IMG/VR virus record: IMGVR_UViG_3300042445_001604
Location: 1-64,000 of that record
Strand: one strand, 5' to 3'
DNA length: 64,000 nucleotides
Source: a virus
The position numbers were made by a program, and so were the translations under genes. The notes below the pieces were generated by a model. That model saw only the letters and a list, made by a program, of their open reading frames with translations, was not told where the DNA came from and did no database searches. Of the stretch, positions 26,434-45,705 are shown in pieces (within the stretch, counting starts at the first letter, position 1; each line of letters opens with the position of its first letter).

Positions 26434-28353
26434 TTAGAGTTCGATGGTTGCTGCTGCGGTTCCACCAGTGGTGTCGCGGAGGGCTGCTGCCGCACCGTTG
26501 ACGCTGATGGTCGAGGTGATGGCGAGAGACTCGACACCAACCTTTGCGACGCCTTCGAAGGTTTCAACGAACATCTTGTAGTCGTTGGTTCCGACGAGGG
26601 TCGAGTCGCGGATGATACCGAGGTCCAGCGTTCCACCGTCGAGGAACAAGAAGGTTCCTTCGGCGAACAGGTACCACGTGAACGAGTTTGCGAACCCAGT
26701 GAGTGCTGCTGCACCCTGCGAGGCGTAAACACCGAGGTCGAGCGACGGAATCAGGTCGATGTTTGCCTGAGCGACGAAACCGTCGATTTCAGAGTTCGAG
26801 ATTCCGAGGTTCGAGTCACCGGGCATGTTCAGGATGAGGTCAGCCGACATAGCGTCGTAAACCCATGCAGGAACAATTGCCTTCAACTGAGTGTCAGCCG
26901 CGATGCGGTGACGCGAACGGTATCCTGCTGCTGCACGGCGCAACTGAACGAGGAAGTCGCGACCAAAACCGATGAGGTTGGTGGTCGTAACAGCCGTCGA
27001 AGCGGTTCCGATTGCGGAGGTGAGGTTCTGCTCAGCCTCACGTGCGTGCTGGATGAGTCCGAGTTCGTTGTGACGAGCAAGGAGTTCCGGGTACGCACGA
27101 GTGAACAGGTTACCGAACTGCATCTGGAGGGTCACAGCGTCAGTGTTAGCCGTGGTCTCCGTAGCAGCCGAAACCGTGAGGCTCGCCTTGGTGTCGCTTG
27201 ACGGAGTGATGTCCGTCGCGTTGCTCCAGATTCCAACCGCGTTCGCGTAAGACGAAAGCACGGGCGGAACGACGAAGCGGATACCGCCACGGTCTGCCTG
27301 GAAACGGGGGAGAGCGTCACGCACGGGGCGGACGTTCGTACCGAGACCAAAGACGTCGTACTTCACCTGGAAAGGCGTAGCGTGTCCACCCGATGCAACG
27401 AGTGCTTCGGCTCCGACGACGTTCTGAATCTTGGCGAGGTTGGCTTCGGCGTCTGTGGTCAGAACGCGGTCTTCCGGGTAAGACGTTGAGAACGATGCCA
27501 CGATGTGCTGTTCTCCGTCTCCTCCATTAACGCGACGGAGGGTGTGGAGACGCTTCTCCATTGCCTCGGCTACGCCGTGGAGGTCTTTGATGGTGCTGCC
27601 AGCCGTGTAACCGGGGATGTCAGCGCCAGCCGTGATTGCCACGGATGCGAACGCAACTTCCTCGGCGACGGGACGACGGTCAGCGGGAGCCTCGAAGGCA
27701 CCTTCTGCTGCGGCGGTCACTGTTGCCTCTTCCTGCGCCTCTTCGGACGCAATTTCTTGGGGGGTTTCTTGAATTGATGCTTCTGCTTCTGCAGGAGCGT
27801 CTTCGGCTTCTCCGTCTTCAGGGTCTGCTGAAGCGACAACAGCGTCATCCGCTGCCTCTACTTCTGCTTCTCCATCTTCGGGGTCACCAGAGTTTGATGC
27901 TTCGGCGAGTTCGTCAACTTCGACCGACGCTTCGGCTACTGCCTCTTCGTCAACCGATGCCTCGGACTCGTCCTCTGCCTCAATGGAAGTCTCGTCGACC
28001 GAATACTTGGTCATCTCGTCTTCCTTTGCTTCGTCAGCCATCGGAGCCTTTTCGGCATCCTCGGCTTCCTCTGCTGGCACAACTTCTTCGCTAGGCATGT
28101 CTTCACCCTTGACGCGCATTGCAGCCTCGGCTGCTTGCTGGGTGAGTTCTACTGCCATCGTCTCACGACGTGTCATTTCGCCACGAACCGTGTCGAGCAT
28201 GTCTGCGAGTTCAGTCATGGCAGCAACATTGTCCGAAGTCTGCTCTTCCGATGCATACCTGTCGAACTCAGCGACCATGTTGTCTGCCAGTTCGGTGATT
28301 GCTTCATCACCGAGTTCTGCCAGTTGGTCTAACTGTGATTTGATGCTGTCCAC
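26434..28353 (-). CDS. major capsid (hexamer) protein with acidic N-terminal scaffold
   Basis: About 210 aa acidic helical N-terminus, then ALVASGG, RPVRDALPRFQA.RGGI, GNL..RAYPEL, FLDGGTLDLGIIRDSTL..TNDY..F.ETFE. Confidence 0.88.
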   Translation of the reverse strand: MDSIKSQLDQLAELGDEAITELADNMVAEFDRYASEEQTSDNVAAMTELADMLDTVRGEMTRRETMAVELTQQAAEAAMRVKGEDMPSEEVVPAEEAEDAEKAPMADEAKEDEMTKYSVDETSIEAEDESEASVDEEAVAEASVEVDELAEASNSGDPEDGEAEVEAADDAVVASADPEDGEAEDAPAEAEASIQETPQEIASEEAQEEATVTAAAEGAFEAPADRRPVAEEVAFASVAITAGADIPGYTAGSTIKDLHGVAEAMEKRLHTLRRVNGGDGEQHIVASFSTSYPEDRVLTTDAEANLAKIQNVVGAEALVASGGHATPFQVKYDVFGLGTNVRPVRDALPRFQADRGGIRFVVPPVLSSYANAVGIWSNATDITPSSDTKASLTVSAATETTANTDAVTLQMQFGNLFTRAYPELLARHNELGLIQHAREAEQNLTSAIGTASTAVTTTNLIGFGRDFLVQLRRAAAGYRSRHRIAADTQLKAIVPAWVYDAMSADLILNMPGDSNLGISNSEIDGFVAQANIDLIPSLDLGVYASQGAAALTGFANSFTWYLFAEGTFLFLDGGTLDLGIIRDSTLVGTNDYKMFVETFEGVAKVGVESLAITSTISVNGAAAALRDTTGGTAAATIEL

Positions 28354-28475: not shown

Positions 28476-31400
28476 TTAGGTCAACAATCGCAGAAGTCGG
28501 TTGAATTGAGACGAAACTTCCCCTTGGTTGTACACGTCACTTCCTGACATGAAACCTCGGAGTTCCTTCGTTGCAATGTCGGCTTCTTCTTTGCCAATCT
28601 TGTCCTCGACACGAGTGATGAGGTCTTTTGCAAGACTCTTCAACGTGGCGGGGAGGTCGCTAAATCGCACTTTGGTCGCTTGGTTCTCAAACGGAAGTGG
28701 AAGGTTAGCAATCGTCCTACCCAACTCAGTAGTTGTGGCACGAACATTTTCAACCGACTTGGCGTTGAGTGCGCCAGAGTCGAGCCTGTCGATAGTGTTG
28801 ATGAGGTCAGACGCGGACTTGACAGCCCCCGCATAGTTACCAACATTACCGATAAGATTTTCTGCTTCTGCAATCTTGTCAATGACATCTTGGTTACCAG
28901 AAGTACCAAGGTCCTGCCTCAACCGAGCAAGCACGAGACGGAATCGACCCTGAACGTCGCGAGGCTGAGTCTTACCGGGAACATACTTCCCGTCCTCACC
29001 CATTGGAGTGCCCTCTACCTCGACGTTGACTTCACCGCTAGGTGCAACAATCTCTTGTCCTTCGGCGGGAGCCTTTGCTTCGTTCTGAGGAGCCTGAGTT
29101 TGCGGTGCAGGAGCGGGCGTAGGCTGGTCAACTTCAGAAATTGCACGGTCAATAGCCTGTCCTGGAACAGGAACAACCTTCTTCACCAACTTCTCAAGTT
29201 CAGCATCGACGGACGAAGCGAAAGCCTCAAACTCCTCGTTGCTTAGTTCAAGCGGGAGTTGCGAGGTCGCAATCCCGCTAGATGCTTTTTTTGGGTCGGT
29301 CTCCGAAACTGCTCCGAGATTATCAAACTCCGCGAGTTTCTCCCGCATTCGGTCCAAGTCAGCAGACGCAGTCATTGCCTTCTTAATCCATGTCTCAGGA
29401 ATGAGGTCTGGCTTCTTGAGGGAGCGTGCACGCTTGATGATGTGCTTCTTGACCTCACCGCGCTCAGAGTCCTTAGCGCGACCGAATGCCTTGATGGCGT
29501 TCTTCAGGTCACCCTCGTTACGAATCGGGTACGCACCATCAGGAAGGGCTTCACCCTTCTTGGCGAGATTCTTTCGCTGCGCGGGCGAGAACTCAGCAAA
29601 CTGCATGACAGCGTCGAAAGACTCGACGAGTTCGTCAGTGGATTCAACACTGGCAACAATTGCTTCGAGAACACCACTCTTGTTGAGGTCTGCGAATACG
29701 GTCTCGTACACCATGTAGGCGTCCTGACCATCTTGGTACTCGTGACCCTCAGAGTAAGCCTCTTCGTAGTGAGGAGCAATAGCAACCATCAACTGCCACT
29801 GCCATCTCTGGTGGGCTTCAATACGCCCCGCAATAAGGTCGGCAAGACCCTGCTGGTTGCTCGAGTTGGCAACGTCAAAAGCCATCTTCATCTTGTCGAT
29901 GATGATGCCGTTTCCAATGCTGAGGTCGTAGGACATGGTCTGGCACATGGCGTCCTTGAGAGGACGGTTTTCAATGTCAGTGTTGTTGGCAAAGTCTTCG
30001 ATGTCGAACGGAGCAACGTGACCAAGAACCCGAATTCCTTCGGCAATGGGGTCCGCAGACGCGCTAACATCTTCGTAAATCTTTCCAAAGAGACGGTGGT
30101 ACTCAGGGAAGTTTGCACCCTCGACATTCCAGTGGTGTCCCTGAGCGCGGTGTGCAAAAGCGACGACATCTGCAAGCAAGTCCTTGAGGGTGTCAGCAAG
30201 TGCAATGTTTCCGTGCGAGTAAGAGTTGCTTTCGCTTTCCTGAACATATGAATAGTTGAACTCTGCACCCTTGACGCGAGCAGTCAGTTCCGAAATCTTG
30301 TCCGAAAGAGTCAACTTCTCCAACTTAGCGATACGCGAGTTGAGGTCCGCCATTGGGTCAGCCTTCATACGAGCGAGAGTGGCCGCACCCGCCGCTACCA
30401 ATGCGGTAACCTGACCCGACGCAACCATAGCGCGGGCAATGGGGAATCCGGGGACGTTAACTTGGCAGACAGCAACGAGTTCAAGTGAACCACCGATAGG
30501 ACGCCAGTCACCAGACGGTGCCGAAGCACGGAGGGTGCGGATTTGCTCAGGCTGAACTCCGGGGCGAAGTGCTCCAGCAACCCAAATTCCAAATCGGTCC
30601 TCACCAGCGTGAACGTCAGCAACGGCGCTCGCGGTGTCGTCGTAGTGCTTGACTGCGTCAGCAGCACTTGCATAGAGAGAAGCGTGTCCACCAGCAAGCG
30701 TCAACTGTCCCACAGGAATATCTGCACCTTCAGCGGTACGGCAAACACCAGTGTGAAAGTAGCCATACTTGCTCTTGCTACGCGGGGGCTTTACACCGTT
30801 CGAGAGACCGATGTGACTAGTTGACCACGAAGCAATGTGCCCAAAGACACGTCCCTCATCATCAACAGTAAGTGGGGTTGCCTTGCCAAGTTTCGGGTCC
30901 GTGAACCAGTCCTTGGGAGGCGAAACGGGGATAGCACTCGCAACAAGACCGCACGCCATGATGGCTGCAGCATCTTGTGGGTCTACCTCATCGGTGTAAA
31001 TACCGTCTTGCATGATTTGCTCCTCTGGGGCGAATTCGTCCCCGTTGTCTGGCATGTAAATTTTGCACTCTTGGAATGCAGGCTTTGGTACTATTGTAAC
31101 AGCCATTACACGTGCCTTATTTATGTTGATACGGCTCTTCTTGATTTTTTTCTTGCCACTATCTTTAGCAGCGGCTTCTTTGTCTTCATCTTCTTCCGCC
31201 TCGAAGCGGTCCATGTCCGCTGAGACGCCACTGATGAATCCGTTACGGACGAGGCGTTCTGCTTCGCGCCCATATGCTCCAGTGTCGAACACACCGAAGG
31301 CATTTCCAATACCGCCCTCTACGCGTTCCATGTGGTCAATACGACCGACAACTACTGAGCCGTCGTGACCGTCACCAGTCTTGTACTGCCACAAAAGCGG

Positions 31401-34400
31401 AAGTGGGAGTTCGCGAAGTTCAATAGCACCCTTCGTGAACATACGTCCGTCTCCAGACTCCATTCCCTCAGGGATTACGAGAGGAATGTAGAAGCGTGCG
31501 CCCCCACTCATTTGACCGCCAGCAACAAGCGTGCTTGCCTCACCCTTTGACGACTTAGGGTGGCTTGCAGGAAGCAGGTCGTTGTCAGTCGTGTACTTCT
31601 TGTTCTTGGGCGAACCAGACTTGAGAAGGTGCAGGTAGGCGTTGACACGGGCCATTGCCCACGAGTTGCGGTTCTGGTCGGGGCGGTGGCTGGTCGAGAA
31701 TGCTCCAGCACCACGGCGATAAACTGCCTTAAGAGTGGTGATGCTGGTCTTACGTCCAGTGTCAGCCTTCTTGTTGTGCTCCGTGACCTTCTTGCTGAGC
31801 GACTTCTCGATGGCGTCGGTGAAAGTTACACCCTTACCAGTGCCAGCAGAGCCCTTTTTGTTCTTGTCGGAACCCTTGATGCGGTCCTTCTTGGGGGCTG
31901 GCTTTGAGCCTGCAGTAGCAGTAACTCCCATGCTCTTATAGACCTTGGCCTTGATGGTCATTTCCCCACCTATGCGACGCGCAACTGAGCGGTGGTGTCC
32001 ATCGATAATCTCAGGCTCTCCGTCTTCGTCAATCCAAACCTTGATTGGCTTGTCTGAGTTGAGAACTTCTTCTACTCGCCTCATGTTAACCGTGCTCTGA
32101 GTAGGAACAAGGTCAGACAACGCAATCTCGTCTTCGTAGTCTTCCTCGGCCTCGTCGGCGTAGTCTTTGACACTTTCTGGGAGGTCATAAGCAGGCTTAG
32201 CAAAGAACTCATCGACACCGACATTTACGTCATCGCCAACCTGATAAGTTGCACCTGCTGTAATAGGTCCACCAACAGCCCATGCGTTGCAGGTACGTGA
32301 GGCGGCGCACTTGAAGTCGAGTGCTTCGCAATAGCCGAGTTCTGCCTGAGAGATTGCAGCGTCTGCATCAATCTCCTGAGACCCGCCCTGCTCAATACCC
32401 GTGGAGATGCAGTCCAGCATTTGCGGAGTGCGAATAAAGAAGACGCAGTTACCGCAGACGCTCTTTTTTGCTTCTTCCGAAGAAGTCTTCCACTTGTCTG
32501 CTTTTTCCTGCCAGAAGTCATCATTCGGCTCCATCGGGTTGAGGGGGCCGTAACCGACGTTATCAATAGCGTTCTGACGGTTCTTGAGGTTGAGTTCAAT
32601 GTTCTGCGTGGCAGGAGGACATGTTTCCCCGTCGACTGCTGCAGTCAAAGGCATGTCCTCGAGGAGGAGGTCGGTCTCAGGGCTGTACCCAAGGTCAGTG
32701 TTGGTCCGACCAGCAATAAAGTTCACCTTGTCGATGGCATCCTGACGACGAGCGCTGAGAACCATCAGAGTGTTGATTTCATCCGAATCACGGAGAACAT
32801 CAGCACTGAACATACGACCGTCGACCTCTTGGTACGAAAGTTCGCGGTTACGCTTGTCTCCGGGCCACATGCCGTTCATTTCCTTGTGACGGAGAGCACA
32901 GTAACCCTTTGAGCGAGCACCGAGATATTTCTTGAGGTTGCGGACACAGCGAGTCCAGTCACCAGGAGTTCCCCAGCGAATCTTAAGACCACCCTTGCCG
33001 ACAGTCCAGTACTTGCGAAGTTCTTCAGCATTGCCCTTGTTACGGTCAAGACCGCCCGCTGCTACCAGAGCCGAGAAGTCATACTTCTCACCAAGAAGAA
33101 CTGCAACAGCAAAGTCGAGGCTGTAACCAGATGCGGTAACAGGTACTTCTTCCTTTGCACTCTCGCCAGTCTCCTGCGACATGTCAACCTGCTTGAGAAC
33201 GTCGTTGAGGACGGTCTCGTCAAGCGGAACAACGGGGGGAGGTGTAGCCGAGTTGAGGTCAGAAAGAGTCTGCACATCCTTAACCCACGCTCCCTGCTGA
33301 CGAGTCCACACCATTGGAGCAGTCGACTTCGAATTCTCAGGAATAAGAACCGACAACTGCATAACAGCACGGGGGTCATCAGGAGAGACAATAGCCATAT
33401 AGATAGGCTGAACATCCGTGGTTTCGGGAGTGAGTTCTACGGCTTGGTCACCAGCAGAAGTAATCGGGTTGTACCAGATTGAACCATTTCCGCCAGAAGC
33501 CCTGTCCTGCTTCTTCAGCCAGTTCTTAAGAAGTGGGTGCTTATAGGCGTCAACAGAAAGTTTCTGTCCAGCAGCCTTCTCCAACTTCCGACCAGCAGGG
33601 CCGACGTCAGTAGAACTTGACGGAGTACGAGAATCTACTGGAGCAGTTGGAGCATAGTCCCTGAACTGTGCACGCTGAGAAGAAACCCACGAAGGCCAAT
33701 CAGCGAGCATGTTATGCAAGTCAGCAGGAGTAAGTGCAGGAAGAGTCCCTGGCAGTTGAGCAATCGGTCGCCCCATCGGGGTACGAGGCTCGCCAACAAT
33801 TCCAGAAAGGTCAAGCGGGTTGTACGTGTCGGGAAGAGGAGTGGGAGTAGTTGGGTAGACGTCCTGTCGTGGTTCGCGCACCTGTTGTCCAGCAACTCGA
33901 ACAGTGCTTCCGTCGTCAAGTTTGACATTGACAGTTCCAGTGGCACGGTCTGTGCTGGTGATGTTTCCCTGCTTGGAGTTATCTCCGCCCACGGCAACGC
34001 GGTCACCAGTCTTTGCAAACTGCCCCGAAGCGTTACGAACCTGACTTTGAGCAGCCTTGGCGCGTTCTTCGGGAGTGTACTCGGCATTAGCCTTAGTGGT
34101 GTCACCAGCAGCAGTCATCGCAAGGTTGACAATGTTCCAGTCAATCTCGGGAAGAGCGTCCATCGCCATACGGGCTTCTTCTTCGCCATCGTCAAGGTCT
34201 TCGACGGAAACAGTGCGGAACGGGTCCTCTTGGAAAAGAGCAGCAATGGTGATTGCAGATTCTGGGTCAATTGTGACGTGAGTCTTCTCGACATAGTCGT
34301 CTGCCCCGTCAAGGTCAGTGTCACGAGCCCAAATATCTGCGTGCATGCTACCGAGGTCATCCCACGAGCCGTTGTCCCACACGTAGACGTTTCCGTCATC

Positions 34401-35126
34401 GTCAATCTTGTAGAGACGGTCGATTCCCGAGCCGTCAAGACGGACACGAGCAATAAAGTCAGGGGCGTACACATCGTCACGACCGAAGTCGTTGATGTCG
34501 CCAACATACTGGTCGTTGTACGCCTGTGCGTCAGGGACAGCCTCGTATGTGGGAAGTGTGTAGCCGTCAGCAGTAATCGCCTTCTTATTTTCAGACTCGA
34601 CAATTGCGGACGCCCAACGCTGACCAGCGTCGCCACCCCACAGAGCCCATGCGATACGTCCGTTCGAGGGGAAGCCGTCTTCCTTCGGGCTCCAGCCCTT
34701 ACCCTTCTTGTCAACTTCGTGACGAGGGAAATACTTAGCAATGTGACGAACCTTCTCGAGGCCAATCTGTCCACCCTTAGCAAGAGTGCGAGCAGAGTTG
34801 AGGCCAACAGGCGTCCCACCACGGTTATTCTTCTTGCGCCATTCAAGAGCCTTCTTGGCTTCAGACTGGACGCCAGACGGGATAGTGTACTTGCGACCTG
34901 ATGACGCTATAACACCAATATCCAACATAGAGAGAGACGCTTCAGCAAGTTCTACCGCCGAATCGGGAACTGGAATGTCGTGCTCAGAAATGCTCCAAGA
35001 TTGTTCTGAAGACAACACATCAGTGCGCCCAGTCTTGAGGACCATGTTCAGAGCAGGGTCAATGATGGCACCATTGCGCTCATCAGCGAAGAAAAGAAGG
35101 CTTCCGTTGCTTCCTACGTATTCCAC
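28476..35126 (-). CDS. giant multidomain capsid maturation protease (includes Dps/ferritin-like, ParB-like and Cys-rich HiPIP-like modules)
   Basis: Directly upstream of the major capsid gene; protease-like GDGR.F, LPLPLLWQ..GHDGS.VVGRI, GVSAD and a second unit GRVFGHIA...SGDWR; Dps HHWNVEG..F..YH.LF...DPIAE; ParB-like PTQ...IIDGHHR. Confidence 0.85.
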   Translation of the reverse strand: MEYVGSNGSLLFFADERNGAIIDPALNMVLKTGRTDVLSSEQSWSISEHDIPVPDSAVELAEASLSMLDIGVIASSGRKYTIPSGVQSEAKKALEWRKKNNRGGTPVGLNSARTLAKGGQIGLEKVRHIAKYFPRHEVDKKGKGWSPKEDGFPSNGRIAWALWGGDAGQRWASAIVESENKKAITADGYTLPTYEAVPDAQAYNDQYVGDINDFGRDDVYAPDFIARVRLDGSGIDRLYKIDDDGNVYVWDNGSWDDLGSMHADIWARDTDLDGADDYVEKTHVTIDPESAITIAALFQEDPFRTVSVEDLDDGEEEARMAMDALPEIDWNIVNLAMTAAGDTTKANAEYTPEERAKAAQSQVRNASGQFAKTGDRVAVGGDNSKQGNITSTDRATGTVNVKLDDGSTVRVAGQQVREPRQDVYPTTPTPLPDTYNPLDLSGIVGEPRTPMGRPIAQLPGTLPALTPADLHNMLADWPSWVSSQRAQFRDYAPTAPVDSRTPSSSTDVGPAGRKLEKAAGQKLSVDAYKHPLLKNWLKKQDRASGGNGSIWYNPITSAGDQAVELTPETTDVQPIYMAIVSPDDPRAVMQLSVLIPENSKSTAPMVWTRQQGAWVKDVQTLSDLNSATPPPVVPLDETVLNDVLKQVDMSQETGESAKEEVPVTASGYSLDFAVAVLLGEKYDFSALVAAGGLDRNKGNAEELRKYWTVGKGGLKIRWGTPGDWTRCVRNLKKYLGARSKGYCALRHKEMNGMWPGDKRNRELSYQEVDGRMFSADVLRDSDEINTLMVLSARRQDAIDKVNFIAGRTNTDLGYSPETDLLLEDMPLTAAVDGETCPPATQNIELNLKNRQNAIDNVGYGPLNPMEPNDDFWQEKADKWKTSSEEAKKSVCGNCVFFIRTPQMLDCISTGIEQGGSQEIDADAAISQAELGYCEALDFKCAASRTCNAWAVGGPITAGATYQVGDDVNVGVDEFFAKPAYDLPESVKDYADEAEEDYEDEIALSDLVPTQSTVNMRRVEEVLNSDKPIKVWIDEDGEPEIIDGHHRSVARRIGGEMTIKAKVYKSMGVTATAGSKPAPKKDRIKGSDKNKKGSAGTGKGVTFTDAIEKSLSKKVTEHNKKADTGRKTSITTLKAVYRRGAGAFSTSHRPDQNRNSWAMARVNAYLHLLKSGSPKNKKYTTDNDLLPASHPKSSKGEASTLVAGGQMSGGARFYIPLVIPEGMESGDGRMFTKGAIELRELPLPLLWQYKTGDGHDGSVVVGRIDHMERVEGGIGNAFGVFDTGAYGREAERLVRNGFISGVSADMDRFEAEEDEDKEAAAKDSGKKKIKKSRININKARVMAVTIVPKPAFQECKIYMPDNGDEFAPEEQIMQDGIYTDEVDPQDAAAIMACGLVASAIPVSPPKDWFTDPKLGKATPLTVDDEGRVFGHIASWSTSHIGLSNGVKPPRSKSKYGYFHTGVCRTAEGADIPVGQLTLAGGHASLYASAADAVKHYDDTASAVADVHAGEDRFGIWVAGALRPGVQPEQIRTLRASAPSGDWRPIGGSLELVAVCQVNVPGFPIARAMVASGQVTALVAAGAATLARMKADPMADLNSRIAKLEKLTLSDKISELTARVKGAEFNYSYVQESESNSYSHGNIALADTLKDLLADVVAFAHRAQGHHWNVEGANFPEYHRLFGKIYEDVSASADPIAEGIRVLGHVAPFDIEDFANNTDIENRPLKDAMCQTMSYDLSIGNGIIIDKMKMAFDVANSSNQQGLADLIAGRIEAHQRWQWQLMVAIAPHYEEAYSEGHEYQDGQDAYMVYETVFADLNKSGVLEAIVASVESTDELVESFDAVMQFAEFSPAQRKNLAKKGEALPDGAYPIRNEGDLKNAIKAFGRAKDSERGEVKKHIIKRARSLKKPDLIPETWIKKAMTASADLDRMREKLAEFDNLGAVSETDPKKASSGIATSQLPLELSNEEFEAFASSVDAELEKLVKKVVPVPGQAIDRAISEVDQPTPAPAPQTQAPQNEAKAPAEGQEIVAPSGEVNVEVEGTPMGEDGKYVPGKTQPRDVQGRFRLVLARLRQDLGTSGNQDVIDKIAEAENLIGNVGNYAGAVKSASDLINTIDRLDSGALNAKSVENVRATTTELGRTIANLPLPFENQATKVRFSDLPATLKSLAKDLITRVEDKIGKEEADIATKELRGFMSGSDVYNQGEVSSQFNRLLRLLT

Positions 35127-36189: not shown

Positions 36190-39100
36190 TTATCCGATTA
36201 CGTCTGCACTGGGAATCTCAGTGGTCATGGACGAGTCCGTGTACCACTTGCCAGTTGCCATGTCAAAGAACAGGTCCTCTGCCATGTACTTCTTGTTCTC
36301 TGACTTTGAACCAAGACCTTGAGTCGGGCTCCAATCAGAGAGAAGAAGGAGAAGTCCCATACCGAAGTGCTTGACCTGCTCGTCGAACTGCTCTACGGGA
36401 CGACCATAGGTTTTAGCGTTCTTGATTTCGTCAGTCATTTCCTTATCGGTGTACCACTTACCAGTTGACTCATTTTGGAAAAGCGCCGAGGAATTAGCAG
36501 CAAAGGCTCTTCCGTTATACTTGCTGGCGTACACAACCATTCCGTCTCCAACAGATGATTGCCCATTGTGTCCAAAGATATCCTGCATAACCATCGTGGC
36601 AACTTCGGAGTACTTGTTGTTTGGCGAGAAGAAGTTCTCTGCGTCAGAAAACAGACCTCTTTCGCCGTACTGCTTGAGCAGGTAGTTAGACACAAAACCG
36701 TTTACTGTGTTAAATCCTTTTTCCTTACCGACACGGGTGCTACCAGTCGCACTTGCAAGTTGAGGCAAAACATCGCTTCCGTCCTTGTCCGTTGAGACAA
36801 GGCGGTCGTAGAGCCAAGCGTGCTCAAGTTGCGCCACGTTGGGGCTAACTTCTTGGATGACATGCCACAACTCGTGAAGGAATACGTCAGTGTACGGATT
36901 TTCGTAGGCACTCTGGAACTGTATGCCTCCCTGTGAGCGACCGTGCTCTCTAGAGACGGCAATCTTGTAGTGTCCAGAGTACTTTCTCATGTTCCCTCGG
37001 CCCTTAGTCGGAGCGACCACTAGTTGCATCTTATTGTTCTGCATAATCTCTGCCAACTGAAGAAGAATTGCTCGAGGAACTCGGTTAAAGGCTTCCTGGA
37101 TTGCTTTGCCCATTTCGCCTCTCTCAGTAATAGAAGACCCACCGTATGAAGAGCGAATTCCAAGAGCAGACATTGACACATTGTCAAACTCGACTCCGAG
37201 TTCTTTCAGAGTGTCAACTGTTGCCTTGTCGTGGGCAATTTTACTGTCTTTGAAGAACTTCTTAAGTACCTCGCGGTGCGCTTCGAGTTGCTCTTTGGCT
37301 TTCTTCTTAGTGCGAAGCATTTCTTCTACTTTTTGTTTAATCTCGGGACTATTCGCCATTGCGTAGATAAGAGCAGCGCCGTCTCTCGACCAAGGACTCA
37401 AGAGGTCACCAAAGTCTGGTGCATCTGATGTCAGCGTCTCTCCAAGCCCACGAATTTTTTTGTAGTCTACGTTGAAATTTTCATCGACGTATCCATCGCC
37501 AGCCATCTTCTTGATAATCAGTTGAATGTCTTCTTCGGTATAACCAAAGTTAGTGGCGTTTCCTAAACTAAAACTAGATATCTCTTTGAGTCGGTCAGCC
37601 TCTTTCGTGATAGCGGCCTCTGCTTTTGAAACATCTTCGTAGGTTTCGATTCCTTGATAGCCACGCTGACGCAGTTCATCGACAACACGTTGCTGTGCAA
37701 GTCCCCATGCCTCGGAGCCAAACTCCATCATCTGGTCCTTGAGAGCACTAGCCTCTTCGGTAGGCTTCGTACCTTTGTAGGTCCTATTTGTACCAATCTT
37801 GACATCCGCAGGGTTACTGTTTGCAGGGAGTCTCTTTCTATCATCCTGCTTGAGGCCATATGAGCCTAAGTTCATAGTGGATGCTGTTTGAGCCACTCTG
37901 CCCGCCAGTGAGTTATCACCAGCGGATTTGGTAGTCTCTTCAGTTCCGTCAGTCTGCGAAGCAACAATAGCCGCTGCGTCGGCAAGTCCGCCCAGTACCT
38001 GAGCGGCGTCGGGGTTTCCGTTGCGCTCTTCCTCTTCCGCGACAACACGAGCAAGTTCAGCCGCTTGGTCAATAGGCTTTGCAGGGGTGCGGTCAGGCGA
38101 GTTACGGAGTTCCTGAATAATGTCAGCAACTTCCTCCCTCGAGTAGACACCTGACATGTCCTTGCCATCCATGACACCGAGGTAATAGTTCATCAAACCT
38201 GAGTTGCCACTTACGCTGGCATCCTTGGTTGCGAGAAGTTCAAGAATCTCGTTCAACTGTGCAGGCGTTGCACTATTTTCAGGGTACTCAGGGTAAATCA
38301 AAACTGGAATTGTCTCGTTCGGTGTGGATACCGTGTACGCAGCATTCTCAACCGTATATGTTCCATCGGTCTGGCGAACAGCAACCGTGTTCTGGACAAG
38401 CAACCCATCAGAACTAACTTGGACAGGTGCAATAACAGGGGCGACTGTCAACGTCAAATCTTCAGTGAACAGCGAAATAAAATCGCCAGGAACTACTTCA
38501 GAAGGTCGCTTTTGTACTGTCTCTCCCGCTACGCCAAGAGGCTTCTCAGGAATAACAGTTCCGTCAGGAAGAACAAGGTCAGAGTTCTCGTCTCGCTGGG
38601 CGGTCTGACGCTCAGGCTTGACTGCAGGCGCGAGGGGTGGAAGAGGTTGAGGAAGCAACTCTTGGGCATCGATACCATCAGCATCTGTGCCGTATCCAGC
38701 GCGGGGGTCAGTGTACCCATCCTTATACTTCACTCGCTCGGAGCCATCAGTACCAGTAGCGGTCTCAATCAAACGGTTGTTACGAGTAGTGGTGATTTGG
38801 AATCGTCCATCCTCCCACTGAACCATGATGTAGTCCGTGTAGCGGTAACCACCATTAGCGTCGACATATCCAAGACGCTTGACAACCTTACCGCGACGCC
38901 TAATGTCGACCTTGAAACTAGGAACATAATCAACGGTATCGCCAACCTCCAGCGGAGTCCGCTGGTCAAACGAGATGCCCTCGCCATGAGAGTCAAGAGC
39001 CTGCTGATTTGAAATTTGAGCGTCATAGGCCGACGCAACTGCGTATAGGTAGTCAATGTCAATTCCAAGGTTTAAATCCTTGAACATTGCACCCTCGTTT

Positions 39101-42100: not shown

Positions 42101-42939
42101 CTGCCACCGAAGACGCGCTCAAACTGAGCAACCTCTTTACCGAGGTCTTTGTTCGACATACCAGCAGGGTCAGCCTTAGGGGCCTCGGGAGTTGCGTCGG
42201 TCGGAAGTGTGGCTACAGGGGCTTTGTTAGCGAGGTCGCGTGCACGAGAGAGTTGTGCATCCGTCATAGTCTCTCTGTCAAAATCTGTGGGGACATAGTC
42301 CTTACGCGTCATGTCAATAGCGTGGACAGCCTTCATCGCCTCGCCAAGGTCATCTACCGACTGGACAGTGTTCTGGGGGTCGATGTTGTCGACTACGTCA
42401 TATCCGCCAAATTCGTTCGGCTCAATCGTGATGTCGCCATCCTCAGAGATGAACGCACCATCAATGTCAGGGTGCTCCATAAAGTCTGGCGGAATTTCCT
42501 GAAACTCGAGGTCTTCAATGTTGGGGAAGTTGCCAAAAGAACTTGGGTTCTTAAGGTCAATGCCCTTACTGGCAAGATAATCTCCCGGCAAAACAGCCTG
42601 GACACTGGACGACTTAGTGCCCATGTCCGAAGCAAGATTAACTGGGTAACGATAGAAACCTTCGGGCACACTGCCGTCTTCGGAATTGACATGGAACCAA
42701 CCCATGTTCTCGCCACGGTCAGAACCACCAACAAAGCGCGAGAACGTAGCAACAGGAATACCATTCTGGCGCATGACAAGTCGCATGAGACCAAACATGA
42801 AAGCAAACTTGCCCTCGTCATCACGACGCTGAAGACGGGCACGAGCCGAACGAGCAGCGAACGAGTTACCACCCGAATACGCGCTCGCAAGGATTGCGTT
42901 CAAGCGGGCGGTGAGGTCTGTGTTATCGCGGTTGTCCAT
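36190..42939 (-). CDS. giant putative internal head/ejected protein with C-terminal HExxH metallopeptidase-like motif
   Basis: 2249 aa between portal and protease; VFLHELWH then a downstream E (YSEV); N-terminal QRRDDEGKF. Confidence 0.7.
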   Translation of the reverse strand: MDNRDNTDLTARLNAILASAYSGGNSFAARSARARLQRRDDEGKFAFMFGLMRLVMRQNGIPVATFSRFVGGSDRGENMGWFHVNSEDGSVPEGFYRYPVNLASDMGTKSSSVQAVLPGDYLASKGIDLKNPSSFGNFPNIEDLEFQEIPPDFMEHPDIDGAFISEDGDITIEPNEFGGYDVVDNIDPQNTVQSVDDLGEAMKAVHAIDMTRKDYVPTDFDRETMTDAQLSRARDLANKAPVATLPTDATPEAPKADPAGMSNKDLGKEVAQFERVFGGRTSGMDEATRARYDLVSDEWELRIDEHEDQFENPDFIRDPSKAEATAPVAEIPATEEVTPPTETPVVEEVVTPAPTSENPFGLEGDVTFRDADGNRVSRNILNDLPLGTEIDAQQLLPGNRMGKANFVRQLHAWKNTQTNEQHFDNPSAEPSPEGNGTVEQTQEIADLLRAKLVNENGDLPVGLVRDKLYQSILDGDNSARYFPKDEMDDAIAEIRSLSDSDGGDNQPPTPPTTPAPEDGGEGITDPNQLLEGDIFDTIALFAEQGFENSATFGNVRVSAYVIEDADEGDTINIGIEYTDSEGNLKEYNLSFPLTSDGMFIGMGDRDKGLTARDLVRDQLQGEIDADASPEEPEANVTSPEQLLEDVHMDRLDELLNYPDNVWENGNVQYSVQIFDALDGEDGGLKWSISFVDENGKEYYYAGVYDGGSIDGIRNEIQSQINQQKTPAETVTEIAPAPELMLGSYNLNSLPSATELRRAKSLDGVSETDLQDALADAIKNGKKSVIIGGKNYSTRVLVVALSSRGFDTDLFIAGQLDAKNGNTSNVDALNAYRAQNPDVTREGTDNAKPATAEEALSAFVAGTSQEELVDLYTEAIQNGRENVVVSLENFGSPEALGSSIVEIPLADFRKRLVDKGVDMDSVDDGFKGNDDAKKKIADEMGEDVVDLETGYRSDWRDVIISGSSEYNHIRFLDEFGVMQEFILDEDGKWYDTSKPLNNKRLNKGKDSSEMIRYMERGSNVDKDELIYITDGFGYDDSGDLIDEAKNAFSFNTPQDDALSPEDAAEVSRWRHITYGDLKKMLKLQKEGVVFDVLDKMQELFPNSERRSEDELVTETHEYTSKSGKDKGTKYKFEVVVTKTPNEYYYTYVRITNTKTGKVQSSRAGRMNQSALGAFRTYRREMTKFHHSFFKTGGPVAWFRSGATKIRMKTDEFDEDLGYYTHSKDLQLDRNTTASVLGLLGASPSSTQEVNRASDLVMREIFRYLGKYRHDDVWMGKAVKRLNEGAMFKDLNLGIDIDYLYAVASAYDAQISNQQALDSHGEGISFDQRTPLEVGDTVDYVPSFKVDIRRRGKVVKRLGYVDANGGYRYTDYIMVQWEDGRFQITTTRNNRLIETATGTDGSERVKYKDGYTDPRAGYGTDADGIDAQELLPQPLPPLAPAVKPERQTAQRDENSDLVLPDGTVIPEKPLGVAGETVQKRPSEVVPGDFISLFTEDLTLTVAPVIAPVQVSSDGLLVQNTVAVRQTDGTYTVENAAYTVSTPNETIPVLIYPEYPENSATPAQLNEILELLATKDASVSGNSGLMNYYLGVMDGKDMSGVYSREEVADIIQELRNSPDRTPAKPIDQAAELARVVAEEEERNGNPDAAQVLGGLADAAAIVASQTDGTEETTKSAGDNSLAGRVAQTASTMNLGSYGLKQDDRKRLPANSNPADVKIGTNRTYKGTKPTEEASALKDQMMEFGSEAWGLAQQRVVDELRQRGYQGIETYEDVSKAEAAITKEADRLKEISSFSLGNATNFGYTEEDIQLIIKKMAGDGYVDENFNVDYKKIRGLGETLTSDAPDFGDLLSPWSRDGAALIYAMANSPEIKQKVEEMLRTKKKAKEQLEAHREVLKKFFKDSKIAHDKATVDTLKELGVEFDNVSMSALGIRSSYGGSSITERGEMGKAIQEAFNRVPRAILLQLAEIMQNNKMQLVVAPTKGRGNMRKYSGHYKIAVSREHGRSQGGIQFQSAYENPYTDVFLHELWHVIQEVSPNVAQLEHAWLYDRLVSTDKDGSDVLPQLASATGSTRVGKEKGFNTVNGFVSNYLLKQYGERGLFSDAENFFSPNNKYSEVATMVMQDIFGHNGQSSVGDGMVVYASKYNGRAFAANSSALFQNESTGKWYTDKEMTDEIKNAKTYGRPVEQFDEQVKHFGMGLLLLLSDWSPTQGLGSKSENKKYMAEDLFFDMATGKWYTDSSMTTEIPSADVIG

Positions 42940-42998
42940 GTTTTCTTTCTCCGTGAGTGGTAAGTCTAAATCTCTGGATAGTATATCAGTTAGAGTTG

Positions 42999-43523
42999 TT
43001 ATACGATGCGGGCAAGTACGTCAGGAGCGCTGGCTCGGAGACGCACTACGGCGAACTTGTATTCGGCAGAAGCAGGGTCGTTAGCAAGAACCGACGCAAC
43101 CAAAGCCTTGGTTTGGGGATTGGCATTGAGGGTTCCAGCCTCCCAAGCAGCACGTTCTTCGACATATGCCGACGCCGTCAGGGCCTCGTCAGTGTTCGGA
43201 AGAAGGGGGTGCCCGAGGGGGAGCAGGTCAATGTGGGGAGTAGTCGCATTGTTCTGGGTAGCCACGGACAAGAAGTTCTCAACTGCTCGGATAATGCCGA
43301 AAGTAGCCGACTTTTTGTCCTGCCCAACGCGAGCGTTGTTCTCGCGGATAACAACCTCGCGGACGGCATACGGCAAAACGTGACGGGCAGGAGCAACCTG
43401 CGAGTTGGCGCTGGCAGTAAGGGCGAGTGCGTACTCAGTGAGAGACGGGGTACGACCCAAAGAAATGCGCTTAAGTTGTACGGGCCCGTTGTCAATAAGA
43501 GCGTTCAGGTCATCTTCATACAT
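42999..43523 (-). CDS. hypothetical head-region protein
   Basis: 174 aa; DLLPLGHP matches DLLPASHP of the 2216 aa protein; two ALTASA motifs. Confidence 0.7.
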   Translation of the reverse strand: MYEDDLNALIDNGPVQLKRISLGRTPSLTEYALALTASANSQVAPARHVLPYAVREVVIRENNARVGQDKKSATFGIIRAVENFLSVATQNNATTPHIDLLPLGHPLLPNTDEALTASAYVEERAAWEAGTLNANPQTKALVASVLANDPASAEYKFAVVRLRASAPDVLARIV

Positions 43524-43525
43524 AG

Positions 43526-44023
43526 TTAGTTACCCTTCTTGGGGAGCAGGTCGGCATCATGTGCGCTGTACAGGTCGACAGCGAGTGAGCGGGTGCGCTC
43601 AAATGGGTTGTCGTTCTCGCGGACGGCGCGGAGCCATGTCGCACGGAACGCGGGAATGACCTCAAAGCCAAGACCAGCGTAAGCAGTGATAGCAAAGATA
43701 GCATGCTCAGGGGTCACATAAAAAGACTCATCTTTGACGGTGATGTTCGTCCCAGCAGACACAGCACCAGCAGTAAGAGTCTGCAAGTCCATGTCCTCGT
43801 TACTGCGGGACTTGAGGTGGTCGAGAACACGAGTCATCGCCGTCTCGTGAATCGAGAGCGAGTCAGAGCCCTTGCTCGACGCAGCGCCTCGGTAGTAGAC
43901 GGTCTTGAGTTCCGACAGCGAGCAGTCGCGGGCATAGTCGCCAGCCTTACTACGACGGGCAAGAGAGACGAGTTCTTCCTCGGTGGTCGAAGAAAAATGA
44001 AGTCGGCGTGATGGTATTGACAT
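43526..44023 (-). CDS. hypothetical head-region protein
   Basis: 165 aa; LKTVYYRGA...AMTRV matches LKAVYRRGA...AMARV of the 2216 aa protein. Confidence 0.7.
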   Translation of the reverse strand: MSIPSRRLHFSSTTEEELVSLARRSKAGDYARDCSLSELKTVYYRGAASSKGSDSLSIHETAMTRVLDHLKSRSNEDMDLQTLTAGAVSAGTNITVKDESFYVTPEHAIFAITAYAGLGFEVIPAFRATWLRAVRENDNPFERTRSLAVDLYSAHDADLLPKKGN

Positions 44024-45705
44024 TACTGTGGCTCCGCTAATGGAATAGGTGGTGCGTCGGTCGGGGGTGCTGCAGACGGGGTAATAGGTTCGGGGGTGGG
44101 CTCAGGCGCAGGAGTTGCCTCTTCGGCAGGAGCAGGAGTTGCCTCCCCGCCAGCGAGGGCATCTGCAATCTCGGGCGTAATCGGTGCAGGCGAGTTAGCC
44201 TGCTGTGAGGCGCGGGCTGCTTGGAACAACTCAGGGGCAATCGTGTTGAGCAGAGCCTCAGAAAGTTCAGGCGTAATGGCTCCACGCTGGAACAAAAGGC
44301 GCAAGGCGATTTCCGTAGGCTCAGGAGCATCAGCATCCGAGAAGCCGTGAGTACGACGCCACGTGTCCAAGGAGATTGCCATTTTCTCGAACCCAGAGTC
44401 AGCATCAGCAGCGCGGTCATTGCGAGTTGAGATGGCGCTGGGGTCAAACCAGACGACAATGCGCTGAACATCTGCTTCCTCGTAGCCGATGGACTTCAGA
44501 TACGGACGAAGATAAACGACAGTCAGAGCATCGGAGATGAGGAGGAGAAGGGGTTCGATGTGCGCCTTGTAGAGACTCTCATCAATCTGTACGGCGTTCG
44601 AGTAGCGGACGTTGGCAAGGCCAGTGACAATGTCTTTGGGGACATCGAGTCCCTGAAGGATGCGCTCGAGAACACGGTCAGCACGCTGAGCAAGAGCAGG
44701 GTCGAAAGAACGCTCAAATTTAAATTGCTTGATTTTATCGCCAAGTTCAGCAGGTCCTCGAATAATCAGTGGTACAACGGCGGAAGCGGATGATTCGTCG
44801 CTGATGGGGGTCGTCATCGCGTCGATGAGTTGGTCTTCGAACTCATCCTCGGCAGACTCAGGAGTGTTGACGATATCGTCAGCGGGGTCGAACGGGTAGT
44901 CGGGGTCGGCTGCTGCGGAAGTAGACAGTCCGTCAGGAAGATAGAGAGCACCAGCGTTGAGACGCGAGCGAGCCGTAGCGCGGAAGGTACGGTTCAGAAG
45001 GAGGAGTTCATCGCAGAGGTCGAGCAGACCCTTAAGGCTGGACTCGGCGTCCTCCGAGTAACGGGGGTGGCTACGCCAGATGCGACCAACGAACGCAGTG
45101 TTCGGAAGTTTGATAACGCCCTTCTTGCTGGCGTTTGACGAAGCAGCCTGTGCGAGGTCTGCACGAGGAACGATGGTGACGTTACCCCGCTGGTCGACGG
45201 TAAGTTCGTCAGTCGAACGGATATCCCAACTTTCAGGAAGACCAGTTCCAATAAGTTCGGGACGCTGAACGAGGTAGCACTCACCCGTGACGTTGAGGTT
45301 GAGGGCAGCGTCGCGGAGAAGTCCCGCCTGTCCGCCGTATGCGGAGTTGAGACGCTCAAGTGCACGCTCGGCAGCGCTGGAAAGTTGTGGCTCAACGGTG
45401 CTGGAGTTCCTGATGGGGACAGGAGCCTCGGCGGGGTCGTCGATTACAGCAGTGTAAAGACGAACACGAGAGACAACAGAAGCGACGAGGTTGAATGCAT
45501 ATTTGATTTCGCCGATGGCGTCGTAATACTCCCACGCCTCGCCCTGCCACTTGTTAGCATAGGCAGAACGGCGGTCCCGAAACTGCTCCATTTCCCTCTT
45601 GTCATCGATGCGAAGAGTAGATGCAGCAGCGGTAAGCGGTCGCGGAATAGAGTACAAAGGGGTGATTGTAGGGATGAACCCCTCACCCTTACGGAATACA
45701 GCCAT
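44023..45705 (-). CDS. portal protein
   Basis: WQ.EAWEYYD.IGEI, NL.V.GECY, RIWRSHPR, RSRLNAG, SA.VPLII.GP, GLDVP; Pro-rich C-terminus. Confidence 0.88.
   Translation of the reverse strand: MAVFRKGEGFIPTITPLYSIPRPLTAAASTLRIDDKREMEQFRDRRSAYANKWQGEAWEYYDAIGEIKYAFNLVASVVSRVRLYTAVIDDPAEAPVPIRNSSTVEPQLSSAAERALERLNSAYGGQAGLLRDAALNLNVTGECYLVQRPELIGTGLPESWDIRSTDELTVDQRGNVTIVPRADLAQAASSNASKKGVIKLPNTAFVGRIWRSHPRYSEDAESSLKGLLDLCDELLLLNRTFRATARSRLNAGALYLPDGLSTSAAADPDYPFDPADDIVNTPESAEDEFEDQLIDAMTTPISDESSASAVVPLIIRGPAELGDKIKQFKFERSFDPALAQRADRVLERILQGLDVPKDIVTGLANVRYSNAVQIDESLYKAHIEPLLLLISDALTVVYLRPYLKSIGYEEADVQRIVVWFDPSAISTRNDRAADADSGFEKMAISLDTWRRTHGFSDADAPEPTEIALRLLFQRGAITPELSEALLNTIAPELFQAARASQQANSPAPITPEIADALAGGEATPAPAEEATPAPEPTPEPITPSAAPPTDAPPIPLAEPQ

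Follow-up and report, generated by a model that had tools for sequence, protein, structure and literature searches.

Encapsulins are shells of the HK97 fold around a ferritin-superfamily protein, a cargo that is loaded by a C-terminal peptide without proteolysis. The prohead proteases of phages T4, phiKZ and SPN3US cut their substrates after Glu. Processing of many head proteins at a consensus site is described for T4 (gp21), phiKZ (gp175) and SPN3US (PMC7411985), and the R and M sites of herpesvirus assemblin (YLQA-T and VQA-S) are cut after Ala and before Ser or Thr (PMC4498786). Assemblin-like peptidases were also noted in the polyvalent phage proteins, for which processing was predicted (Iyer, Burroughs, Anand, de Souza and Aravind, 2017; PMC5512222). 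In actinophages, proteases are fused with MuF, scaffold or capsid genes in Microbacterium clusters EE, EG and EL and in cluster B mycobacteriophages, and the fusions are assumed to be processed (PMC7302621). The general idea of processed polyvalent head proteins is already known. Here we describe one gene, at 28476..35126 on the minus strand of the first 64 kb (the window) of the 83,366-bp genome of an uncultured actinobacteria phage (IMG/VR record IMGVR_UViG_3300042445_001604). Judging from sequence comparisons and structure models, it probably encodes a self-processing polyvalent head protein, with a short recurring peptide, here called the tag, as its cut site.

Like the polyvalent proteins (PMC5512222), the product of this gene (2216 aa, hereafter the polyprotein) combines unrelated domains in a single virion-associated chain whose gene stands among head genes, has a ParB-type hub domain, and contains a peptidase that is predicted to set the domains free from one another. 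Its chain joins a protease, Dps, a ParB/Srx fold, DUF5824 and other domains, and its gene lies among virion and packaging genes. The two differ in that the assemblin-like peptidases of polyvalent proteins are "always at the C termini", with no cleavage code given (PMC5512222), whereas here the protease is internal, two protease-like domains stand in tandem, Dps and about 400 residues follow them, and its defined linker motif recurs in the capsid protein and the portal. Dps is not mentioned in the text of Iyer et al. (PMC5512222). In T4, phiKZ and SPN3US most substrates are encoded by genes of their own and carry N-terminal propeptides, whereas here the enzyme is part of a single chain of about 12 modules. 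A preliminary description of this locus had compared it with T4 gp21 and phiKZ gp175; the analogy stands in principle but does not extend to the type of site, which is Glu there and would be the assemblin-like Ala|Ser/Thr here. The herpesvirus assemblin precursor pUL26 (PMC4498786) has two or three sites and one scaffold partner and belongs to a eukaryotic virus, and our sequence comparisons showed no relationship between it and the polyprotein. The actinophage fusions share the host phylum with our phage, and those of cluster B and of several Microbacterium phages share the protease family too, but only two or three partners are joined in them, and neither a cleavage motif nor cargo modules were described (PMC7302621). 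An encapsulin is a shell without portal or tail whose cargo carries a C-terminal loading peptide, whereas this phage has portal, terminase and tail genes. In the literature, including the DSL-LC01, Microbacterium and Rosebush papers, we found no description of the tag, of a cleavage motif or virion mass spectrometry for the family, or of a Dps module in such a protein.

The preliminary description had listed thirteen strings of the polyprotein as variants of one motif, and all of them are present in the translation, at most about 10 nucleotides (nt) from where it had placed them: AITADG (residue 183), AMTAAG (336), PITSAG (554), PVTASG (662), ALVAAG (686 and 1575), PLTAAV (826), PITAGA (954), VTATAG (1068), TLVAGG (1199), AMVASG (1566), AIVASV (1822) and AMTASA (1917). 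The strings quoted for other head proteins were found as well, namely PLTAAA in the portal (residue 23), TVTAAA, AITAGA and ALVASG in the capsid protein (211, 239 and 317), ALTASA twice in an open reading frame (ORF) of 174 aa, TLTAGA in an ORF of 165 aa, and AILASA at residue 15 of a 2249-aa protein. We reduced the looser motif to the strict pattern [LIVM][TV]A[ASG][GA] and took expected counts from shuffles. The polyprotein has nine strict matches (0.31 expected) and the capsid protein four (0.25 expected); each of the remaining proteins of the genome longer than 150 aa has none or one. A table of substitutions in head versus tail proteins gave as consensus a small residue, then L/I/V/M, T/V (sometimes A), A, A/S/G and A/G (weakly V), and the corresponding tolerance table showed that position 3 is an essentially fixed Ala and position 4 is A/S/G. 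Not every listed string belongs to one motif by this measure: AITADG, PITSAG and VTATAG lie off the enriched consensus, though in predicted linkers, PLTAAV and AIVASV are relaxed forms, and a strict site at residue 1394 (LVASA) was absent from the list. For the 2249-aa protein the N-terminal near-match AILASA holds, but there is no strict site anywhere in the protein. Among the 120 orderings of the five tag positions the true one is the commonest, both in the polyprotein and in the head genes of relatives. Synonymous codons under the tag vary freely, including TCN/AGY for Ser and CTN/TTG for Leu, which indicates that selection acts on the peptide. A DNA-level origin of the tag, for example as a recombination signal, was considered and is ruled out by the varying synonymous positions.

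Since the motif was defined on the polyprotein, its statistics there are circular, and the weight rests on the capsid protein, on relatives and on the tail control. A search of a protein library with the protease region returned 4,278 cluster representatives (50%-identity clusters, E up to 0.001), with chains of 295 to 2357 aa in which the position of the protease differs widely. The best 150 representatives contain, outside the protease region, 222 strict tags where 16.0 are expected (84.6 thousand residues), and these tags fall in about 150 unrelated flanking contexts. We also retrieved 80 related IMG/VR loci by their capsid protein. Their genes upstream of the capsid gene carry 305 sites against 17.5 expected and their capsid proteins 259 against 18.3, whereas the tail genes downstream carry 34 against 31.2 and minus-strand ORFs 0 against 2.2. 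The comparison of head with tail proteins, proposed earlier as a check, thus gives about 14 to 17 times the expectation in head genes and the expectation itself in tail genes. Cultured relatives (Cece, Pumpernickel, Atuin and Sixama) and the lake metagenome phage DSL-LC01 likewise carry the tag in head proteins alone, with a site near residue 25 of every portal. In the IMG/VR flanks, head genes in general gave only a weak sign of a common N-terminal leader followed by the tag (11 of 157, mostly the polyprotein itself).

The capsid protein has a conserved scaffold-like helical N-terminus, followed by an acidic spacer of very variable length. Its strict sites lie at residue 172, which is variable, and at 212 (VTAAA), 240 (ITAGA) and 318 (LVASG), which are nearly invariant in 72 distinct capsid proteins; past the variable spacer, conservation resumes exactly at VTAAA and ITAGA. 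This is the pattern of a scaffold (delta) region that would be removed at maturation. A comparison of the capsid protein with PDB sequences matched nothing, so that no solved relative defines its mature N-terminus.

To place the sites relative to folded domains, AlphaFold models were made of residues 1-1199 (60-row alignment, mean predicted local distance difference test, pLDDT, of 62) and of residues 1200-1602. In the first model folded blocks alternate with segments of pLDDT below 50 (32% of the residues), and all nine sites listed in the preliminary description for residues 1-1200 lie within such segments, as expected if they mark domain boundaries. In the second model sites 1200, 1567 and 1576 fall in stretches below 50, the latter two at model positions 359-385. 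Homology coverage along the polyprotein steps up or down at the sites, and among the 150 representatives 85% of the sites are within three residues of a homology breakpoint, compared with 39% of random positions. The modules bounded in this way, and the sites between them, are as follows.

34578..35126, minus strand: residues 1-183, beta-rich (1-66) and then helical (78-182; phrog_2859), ending at the weak site AITADG; from the PHROG match and AlphaFold, with low pLDDT at 183-209.
34119..34577, minus strand: residues 184-336, alpha/beta fold, ending at strict MTAAG (residue 337, nt 34104-34118); from AlphaFold and motif position.
33141..34103, minus strand: residues 342-662, with an SH3/KOW-like beta unit and a helix ahead of a long disordered region and an alpha/beta domain (559-651), ending at strict VTASG (residue 663, nt 33126-33140); from AlphaFold and a homology-coverage step at about residue 555.
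33054..33068, minus strand: strict LVAAG (residue 687), which with site 663 brackets a peptide of about 24 residues; both sites are inside the low-pLDDT segment 652-694.
32649..33053, minus strand: helical module, residues 692-826 (phrog_6439; conserved KGYC...WTRC...KIRW), ending at relaxed LTAAV (residue 827); from PHROG and AlphaFold.
32265..32633, minus strand: Cys-rich module, residues 832-954, ending at strict ITAGA (residue 955, nt 32250-32264); from separate genes of relatives.
31923..32249, minus strand: ParB/sulfiredoxin-fold module, about residues 960-1068, with a DGHHR motif; from Foldseek and a weak Pfam ParBc_2 match.
31530..31922, minus strand: DUF5824 module, residues 1069-1199, ending at strict LVAGG (residue 1200, nt 31515-31529); from Pfam PF19141.
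30948..31514, minus strand: protease domain 1, residues 1205-1393, of the HK97/T4 gp21/assemblin fold.
30933..30947, minus strand: strict LVASA (residue 1394), separating the two protease-like domains; its aligned counterpart in the stand-alone Sixama gp79 is the site at residue 22.
30429..30932, minus strand: domain 2, residues 1399-1566; from alignment and a confident beta-rich domain in AlphaFold.
30387..30428, minus strand: twin strict sites MVASG (residue 1567) and LVAAG (residue 1576), where domain 2 ends on its C-terminal side; their conservation within the family is 90% or more.
29661..30386, minus strand: Dps (mini-ferritin) module, residues 1581-1822, ending at relaxed IVASV (residue 1823); from Pfam, PDB and NCBIfam.
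29376..29645, minus strand: small conserved module, residues 1828-1917 (ALPDG-x-YPI ... HI-x-KRA), ending at strict MTASA (residue 1918, nt 29361-29375).
28479..29360, minus strand: C-terminal part, residues 1923-2216, in which a Pro/Ala/Gln linker leads to a conserved domain (about 2037-2216); a candidate for binding the capsid or the scaffold.

Tag sites are exactly the points at which relatives have gained, lost or duplicated these modules or encode them as separate genes. The Cys-rich module, bounded here by LTAAV and ITAGA, makes up the C-terminus of another gene both in DSL-LC01 and in numerous IMG/VR relatives, and such stand-alone versions end in GGPIT(D/E)xx and a stop codon, so that the module is kept and the A-G-A half of the tag is gone. 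The ParB-like module is missing from a 94%-identical relative (P0002), Dps from the DSL-LC01 orthologue, and the module at 1828-1917 is duplicated in another relative (P0009). DUF5824 belongs to a different gene in DSL-LC01, where it is followed by ITAGA, and the conserved C-terminal domain is a separate gene of 183 aa in that phage. Cutting at the eleven strict or relaxed sites would yield about twelve products of 9 to 339 residues, a predicted count nearer 11-12 than the "about ten" suggested earlier.

The Dps identity of the module at 1581-1822 is secure at the sequence level: it scores 38.6 bits with Pfam Ferritin PF00210 (cut-off 24.5) and matches Dps chains of the PDB (best 8ff9, E 2.8e-12), with NCBIfam DpsA matches below their equivalog cut-offs. 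It shows HW-x-V-x-G...H...D-x-x-AE, predicted residues of ferroxidase type. Reading 29780-30210 by eye, we find HW-N-V-E-G..F...H and D-P-I-A-E, and the position that we take to be that of E. coli Dps Asp67 appears to be Gly. The ParB/sulfiredoxin module carries IIDGHHRS and superimposes on sulfiredoxin and on the ParB N-domain (Foldseek probability 1.0, template modelling score on the target 0.56-0.66, root-mean-square deviation 2.2-2.9 over about 80 residues), with a weak Pfam ParBc_2 match (E 0.022). The DUF5824 module scores 31.6 bits with PF19141 (cut-off 25). For the other modules no named family was matched in PHROG, Pfam or NCBIfam.

An embedded protease had been proposed for this gene, and domain 1 indeed has the prohead-protease fold of T4 gp21 and herpes assemblin. 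Its match to Pfam Peptidase_S78 stays below the cut-off (17.1 bits against 21, E 0.006; relatives reach 18.9-19.5 bits), and from its sequence it is at best a divergent member of the HK97-type S78 proteases. His1254 and Ser1302, a candidate catalytic pair, are conserved in 24 of 25 sequences and lie inside the stretch matching S78. A profile of the protease region found nothing among PDB sequences, and Foldseek by itself gave weak rows (E of 0.009 or more). In other phages domain 1 is a separate small gene. Domain 2, confidently modelled at about 1399-1557, defines the family and is its most conserved part; it contains the motif SGDWRP and has invariant His, Tyr and Asp. None of the PDB match lists covers it, and its look-alikes in the ESM Atlas, clusters of Peptidase_S80/S77, Mu-like_Pro and "head processing protein", are weak and below the recognition threshold. 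Comparison of the two domains by hhalign gave a probability of 2.6%, no evidence of a tandem duplication. Strict sites flank both domain 1 (1200 and 1394) and domain 2 (1394 and 1567/1576), which by analogy is the layout of self-release sites.

Domain 2 was also seen without domain 1, in Sixama gp79 and in many proteins of 300-400 aa. The best PHROG match of the protease region, phrog_859 (E 3e-87), is labelled "portal protein", and the part matched is the two protease-like domains; the label was probably carried over from fusion proteins.

Taken together, the computational tests support the tag well as a cut site of the protease. Read as a self-processing head protein, the polyprotein would consist of some twelve independently folding modules joined by disordered linkers that bear small-[LIVM]-[TV]-A-[ASG]-[GA]. 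The chain would be built into the procapsid alongside the capsid protein, which bears its own scaffold-like N-terminus, and the prohead protease would cut at the tag. The bond after the invariant Ala is the likeliest, by analogy, because assemblin cuts Ala|Ser/Thr. Cutting would free the protease domains, chop the scaffold region of the capsid protein at three to four sites, trim about 26 residues off the portal and process two small head proteins. About 11-12 polyprotein fragments would be released, and those with a fold would probably remain in the head, either as internal proteins or as proteins to be ejected. It is plausible that modules remain in the head as cargo, and the widely conserved C-terminal modules may be assembly parts rather than cargo. 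Because each module has its own cut-site linker, modules could be moved, lost, duplicated or split off without harm.

We put forward more tentatively a further reading, in which any folded module with a tag on each side enters the procapsid along with the protease and is freed afterwards, and the clade freely swaps, duplicates and splits its cargo genes. The capsid might then bring into the host a metal/redox and DNA-handling set (the Dps mini-ferritin, the Cys-rich module and the ParB/sulfiredoxin-like domain), in analogy with the ferritin enclosed in an encapsulin. The tandem domains might also divide the work, domain 2 being a not-yet-recognised type of prohead protease that reads the tag. 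As a cut site, the tag would supply a concrete cleavage code for a very large actinophage head-protease family, counting the 4,278 cluster representatives and hundreds of cultured SEA-PHAGES isolates. Mature termini of capsid, portal and internal proteins would become predictable from sequence. The code would also account for the modular turnover of the giant "capsid maturation protease" genes and single out proteins likely to be carried in the virion, among them Dps, the ParB/sulfiredoxin-like domain and DUF5824. For putting foreign proteins into phage heads, the arrangement would be a natural model to build on.

The tag might instead serve for docking or capsid targeting, by binding to the inside of the shell, to the scaffold or to the protease, the chain being loaded uncut in the manner of the encapsulin cargo-loading peptide or of the binding part of the T4 capsid-targeting sequence. 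A head-specific, multivalent tag that lies near the N-termini of the portal, the giant protein and the stand-alone proteases would suit this role, and a ferritin-like cargo recalls encapsulins. We nevertheless regard docking as unlikely, as the tag also occurs inside the capsid protein itself, at the junction of scaffold and capsid, brackets both protease-like domains as self-release sites do, resembles the assemblin Ala|Ser/Thr sites, and loses its downstream half in stand-alone modules; docking and cutting are moreover compatible, for the T4 targeting sequence ends in a cut site. That the site is cut by some other enzyme, either a host protease or the 2249-aa protein through its presumed zincin-like HExxH end, would accommodate Sixama, in which no S78 domain is detectable. 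Domain 2 is still present in Sixama, however, the tag accompanies the domain-2 family in thousands of proteins and flanks domain 2 at conserved positions, and its Ala-small core fits an assemblin-type specificity, so we hold this explanation to be improbable.

Equally, we give little credence to the tag as a preferred flexible inter-domain linker that was inherited with shuffled modules, the 240-kDa chain working uncut. The sites do lie in disordered linkers rich in small residues, but their roughly 150 flanking contexts are unrelated, order and residues are strictly constrained, linkers of tail proteins show no enrichment, and the tag also stands in the portal N-terminus and the capsid scaffold region, neither of which links shuffled modules. 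That the pattern arose by chance or from the composition of Ala-rich sequence, a view that gains what force it has from the motif having been picked after viewing the protein, is rejected by the shuffles, the permutations, the tail control and the independent relatives, and is hardly credible.

Several observations weigh against the tag as a cut site in a self-processing protein. The motif was chosen post hoc on the polyprotein, which inflates its own p-value, and the 80 related loci are not phylogenetically independent. Three of the boundary strings (AITADG, PITSAG and VTATAG) are not matches to the consensus, linkers 422-453 and 489-558 have no good site, and the neighbouring 2249-aa head protein has no strict site. 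Site 318 of the capsid protein is set in conserved sequence and may serve a structural role instead of being cut. The mycobacteriophage Phunky, a distant member of the family, shows no enrichment and has LTAAS at two N-termini only, so that the specificity for the tag appears limited to a clade. No S78-like sequence was detected in the entire record of Sixama, which keeps domain 2 and the tag; either domain may therefore be the responsible enzyme. Our literature search found no proteomic or biochemical data for the phage or its relatives.

The polyprotein gene lies between the portal and capsid genes, as HK97-type prohead protease genes do, all on the minus strand. The order of the head module is portal, 165-aa ORF, 174-aa ORF, 2249-aa protein, 124-aa ORF, 211-aa ORF, 2216-aa polyprotein, major capsid protein, and then adaptor and tail genes; head-tail adaptor, major tail and tape-measure genes are present in the genome. 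The genes and sites concerned are these.

44023-45705, minus strand: portal (phrog_776).
45622..45636, minus strand: portal site LTAAA (residue 24), at a position kept in Cece, Pumpernickel and Sixama.
43526..44023, minus strand: 165-aa head ORF.
42999..43523, minus strand: 174-aa head ORF.
36190-42939, minus strand: 2249-aa head protein, without a PHROG match.
42880..42894, minus strand: near-match ILASA (residue 16) of the 2249-aa protein.
28476..35126, minus strand: polyprotein (P0001), 2216 aa, a single ORF with a GTG start; from the ORF list and translation.
26434..28353, minus strand: major capsid protein, 639 aa (phrog_777).

The 165-aa ORF is a two-module protein in miniature, with a DUF5824-like N-terminal part, LTAGA at residue 83 and a C-terminal module; DUF5824, ITAGA and the same C-terminal module follow one another in a 347-aa protein of DSL-LC01 (L001, 397-1440). 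The 174-aa ORF has LTASA twice (residues 35 and 115) and LVASV at residue 141, and gp68 of Cece has LTAAG at residue 9. The 2249-aa protein may lose a short N-terminal propeptide at ILASA and otherwise stay whole, as its sequence suggests.

Megablast of the polyprotein gene against phage records gave no match. The closest named relatives are DSL-LC01, the Microbacterium phages Cece, Pumpernickel, Big4, A3Wally and Zooman (about 190 kb), the Arthrobacter phage Atuin, and Gordonia phages such as Sixama. A single long ORF is also kept in relatives, at 2100 aa in P0002 and 2361 aa in L006. In DSL-LC01 (OQ999401, 11695-17366) the polyprotein orthologue is annotated as four genes, a "high potential iron-sulfur protein" of 244 aa followed by proteins of 603, 851 and 183 aa. 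Its module order differs, with the Cys-rich module first, no Dps, and DUF5824 in a gene upstream of the giant protein. Phunky (cluster B1; L088, 4441-8933) shares the protease family at about 31% identity and has LTAAS at residue 24 of the portal and at residue 42 of a MuF-protease fusion; from its sequence, LTAAS may represent a variant specificity with few substrates. The acidic spacer of the capsid protein (27640-28100, residues of about 85-240) varies among relatives in length and sequence, with capsid proteins of 642 to 733 aa, and both of its flanks are conserved. At 42957-43529 a plus-strand ORF of 190 aa overlaps the 174-aa minus-strand ORF almost wholly; of the pair, the genuine gene is probably the minus-strand ORF, given its fit with the operon and its three tag-like sites.

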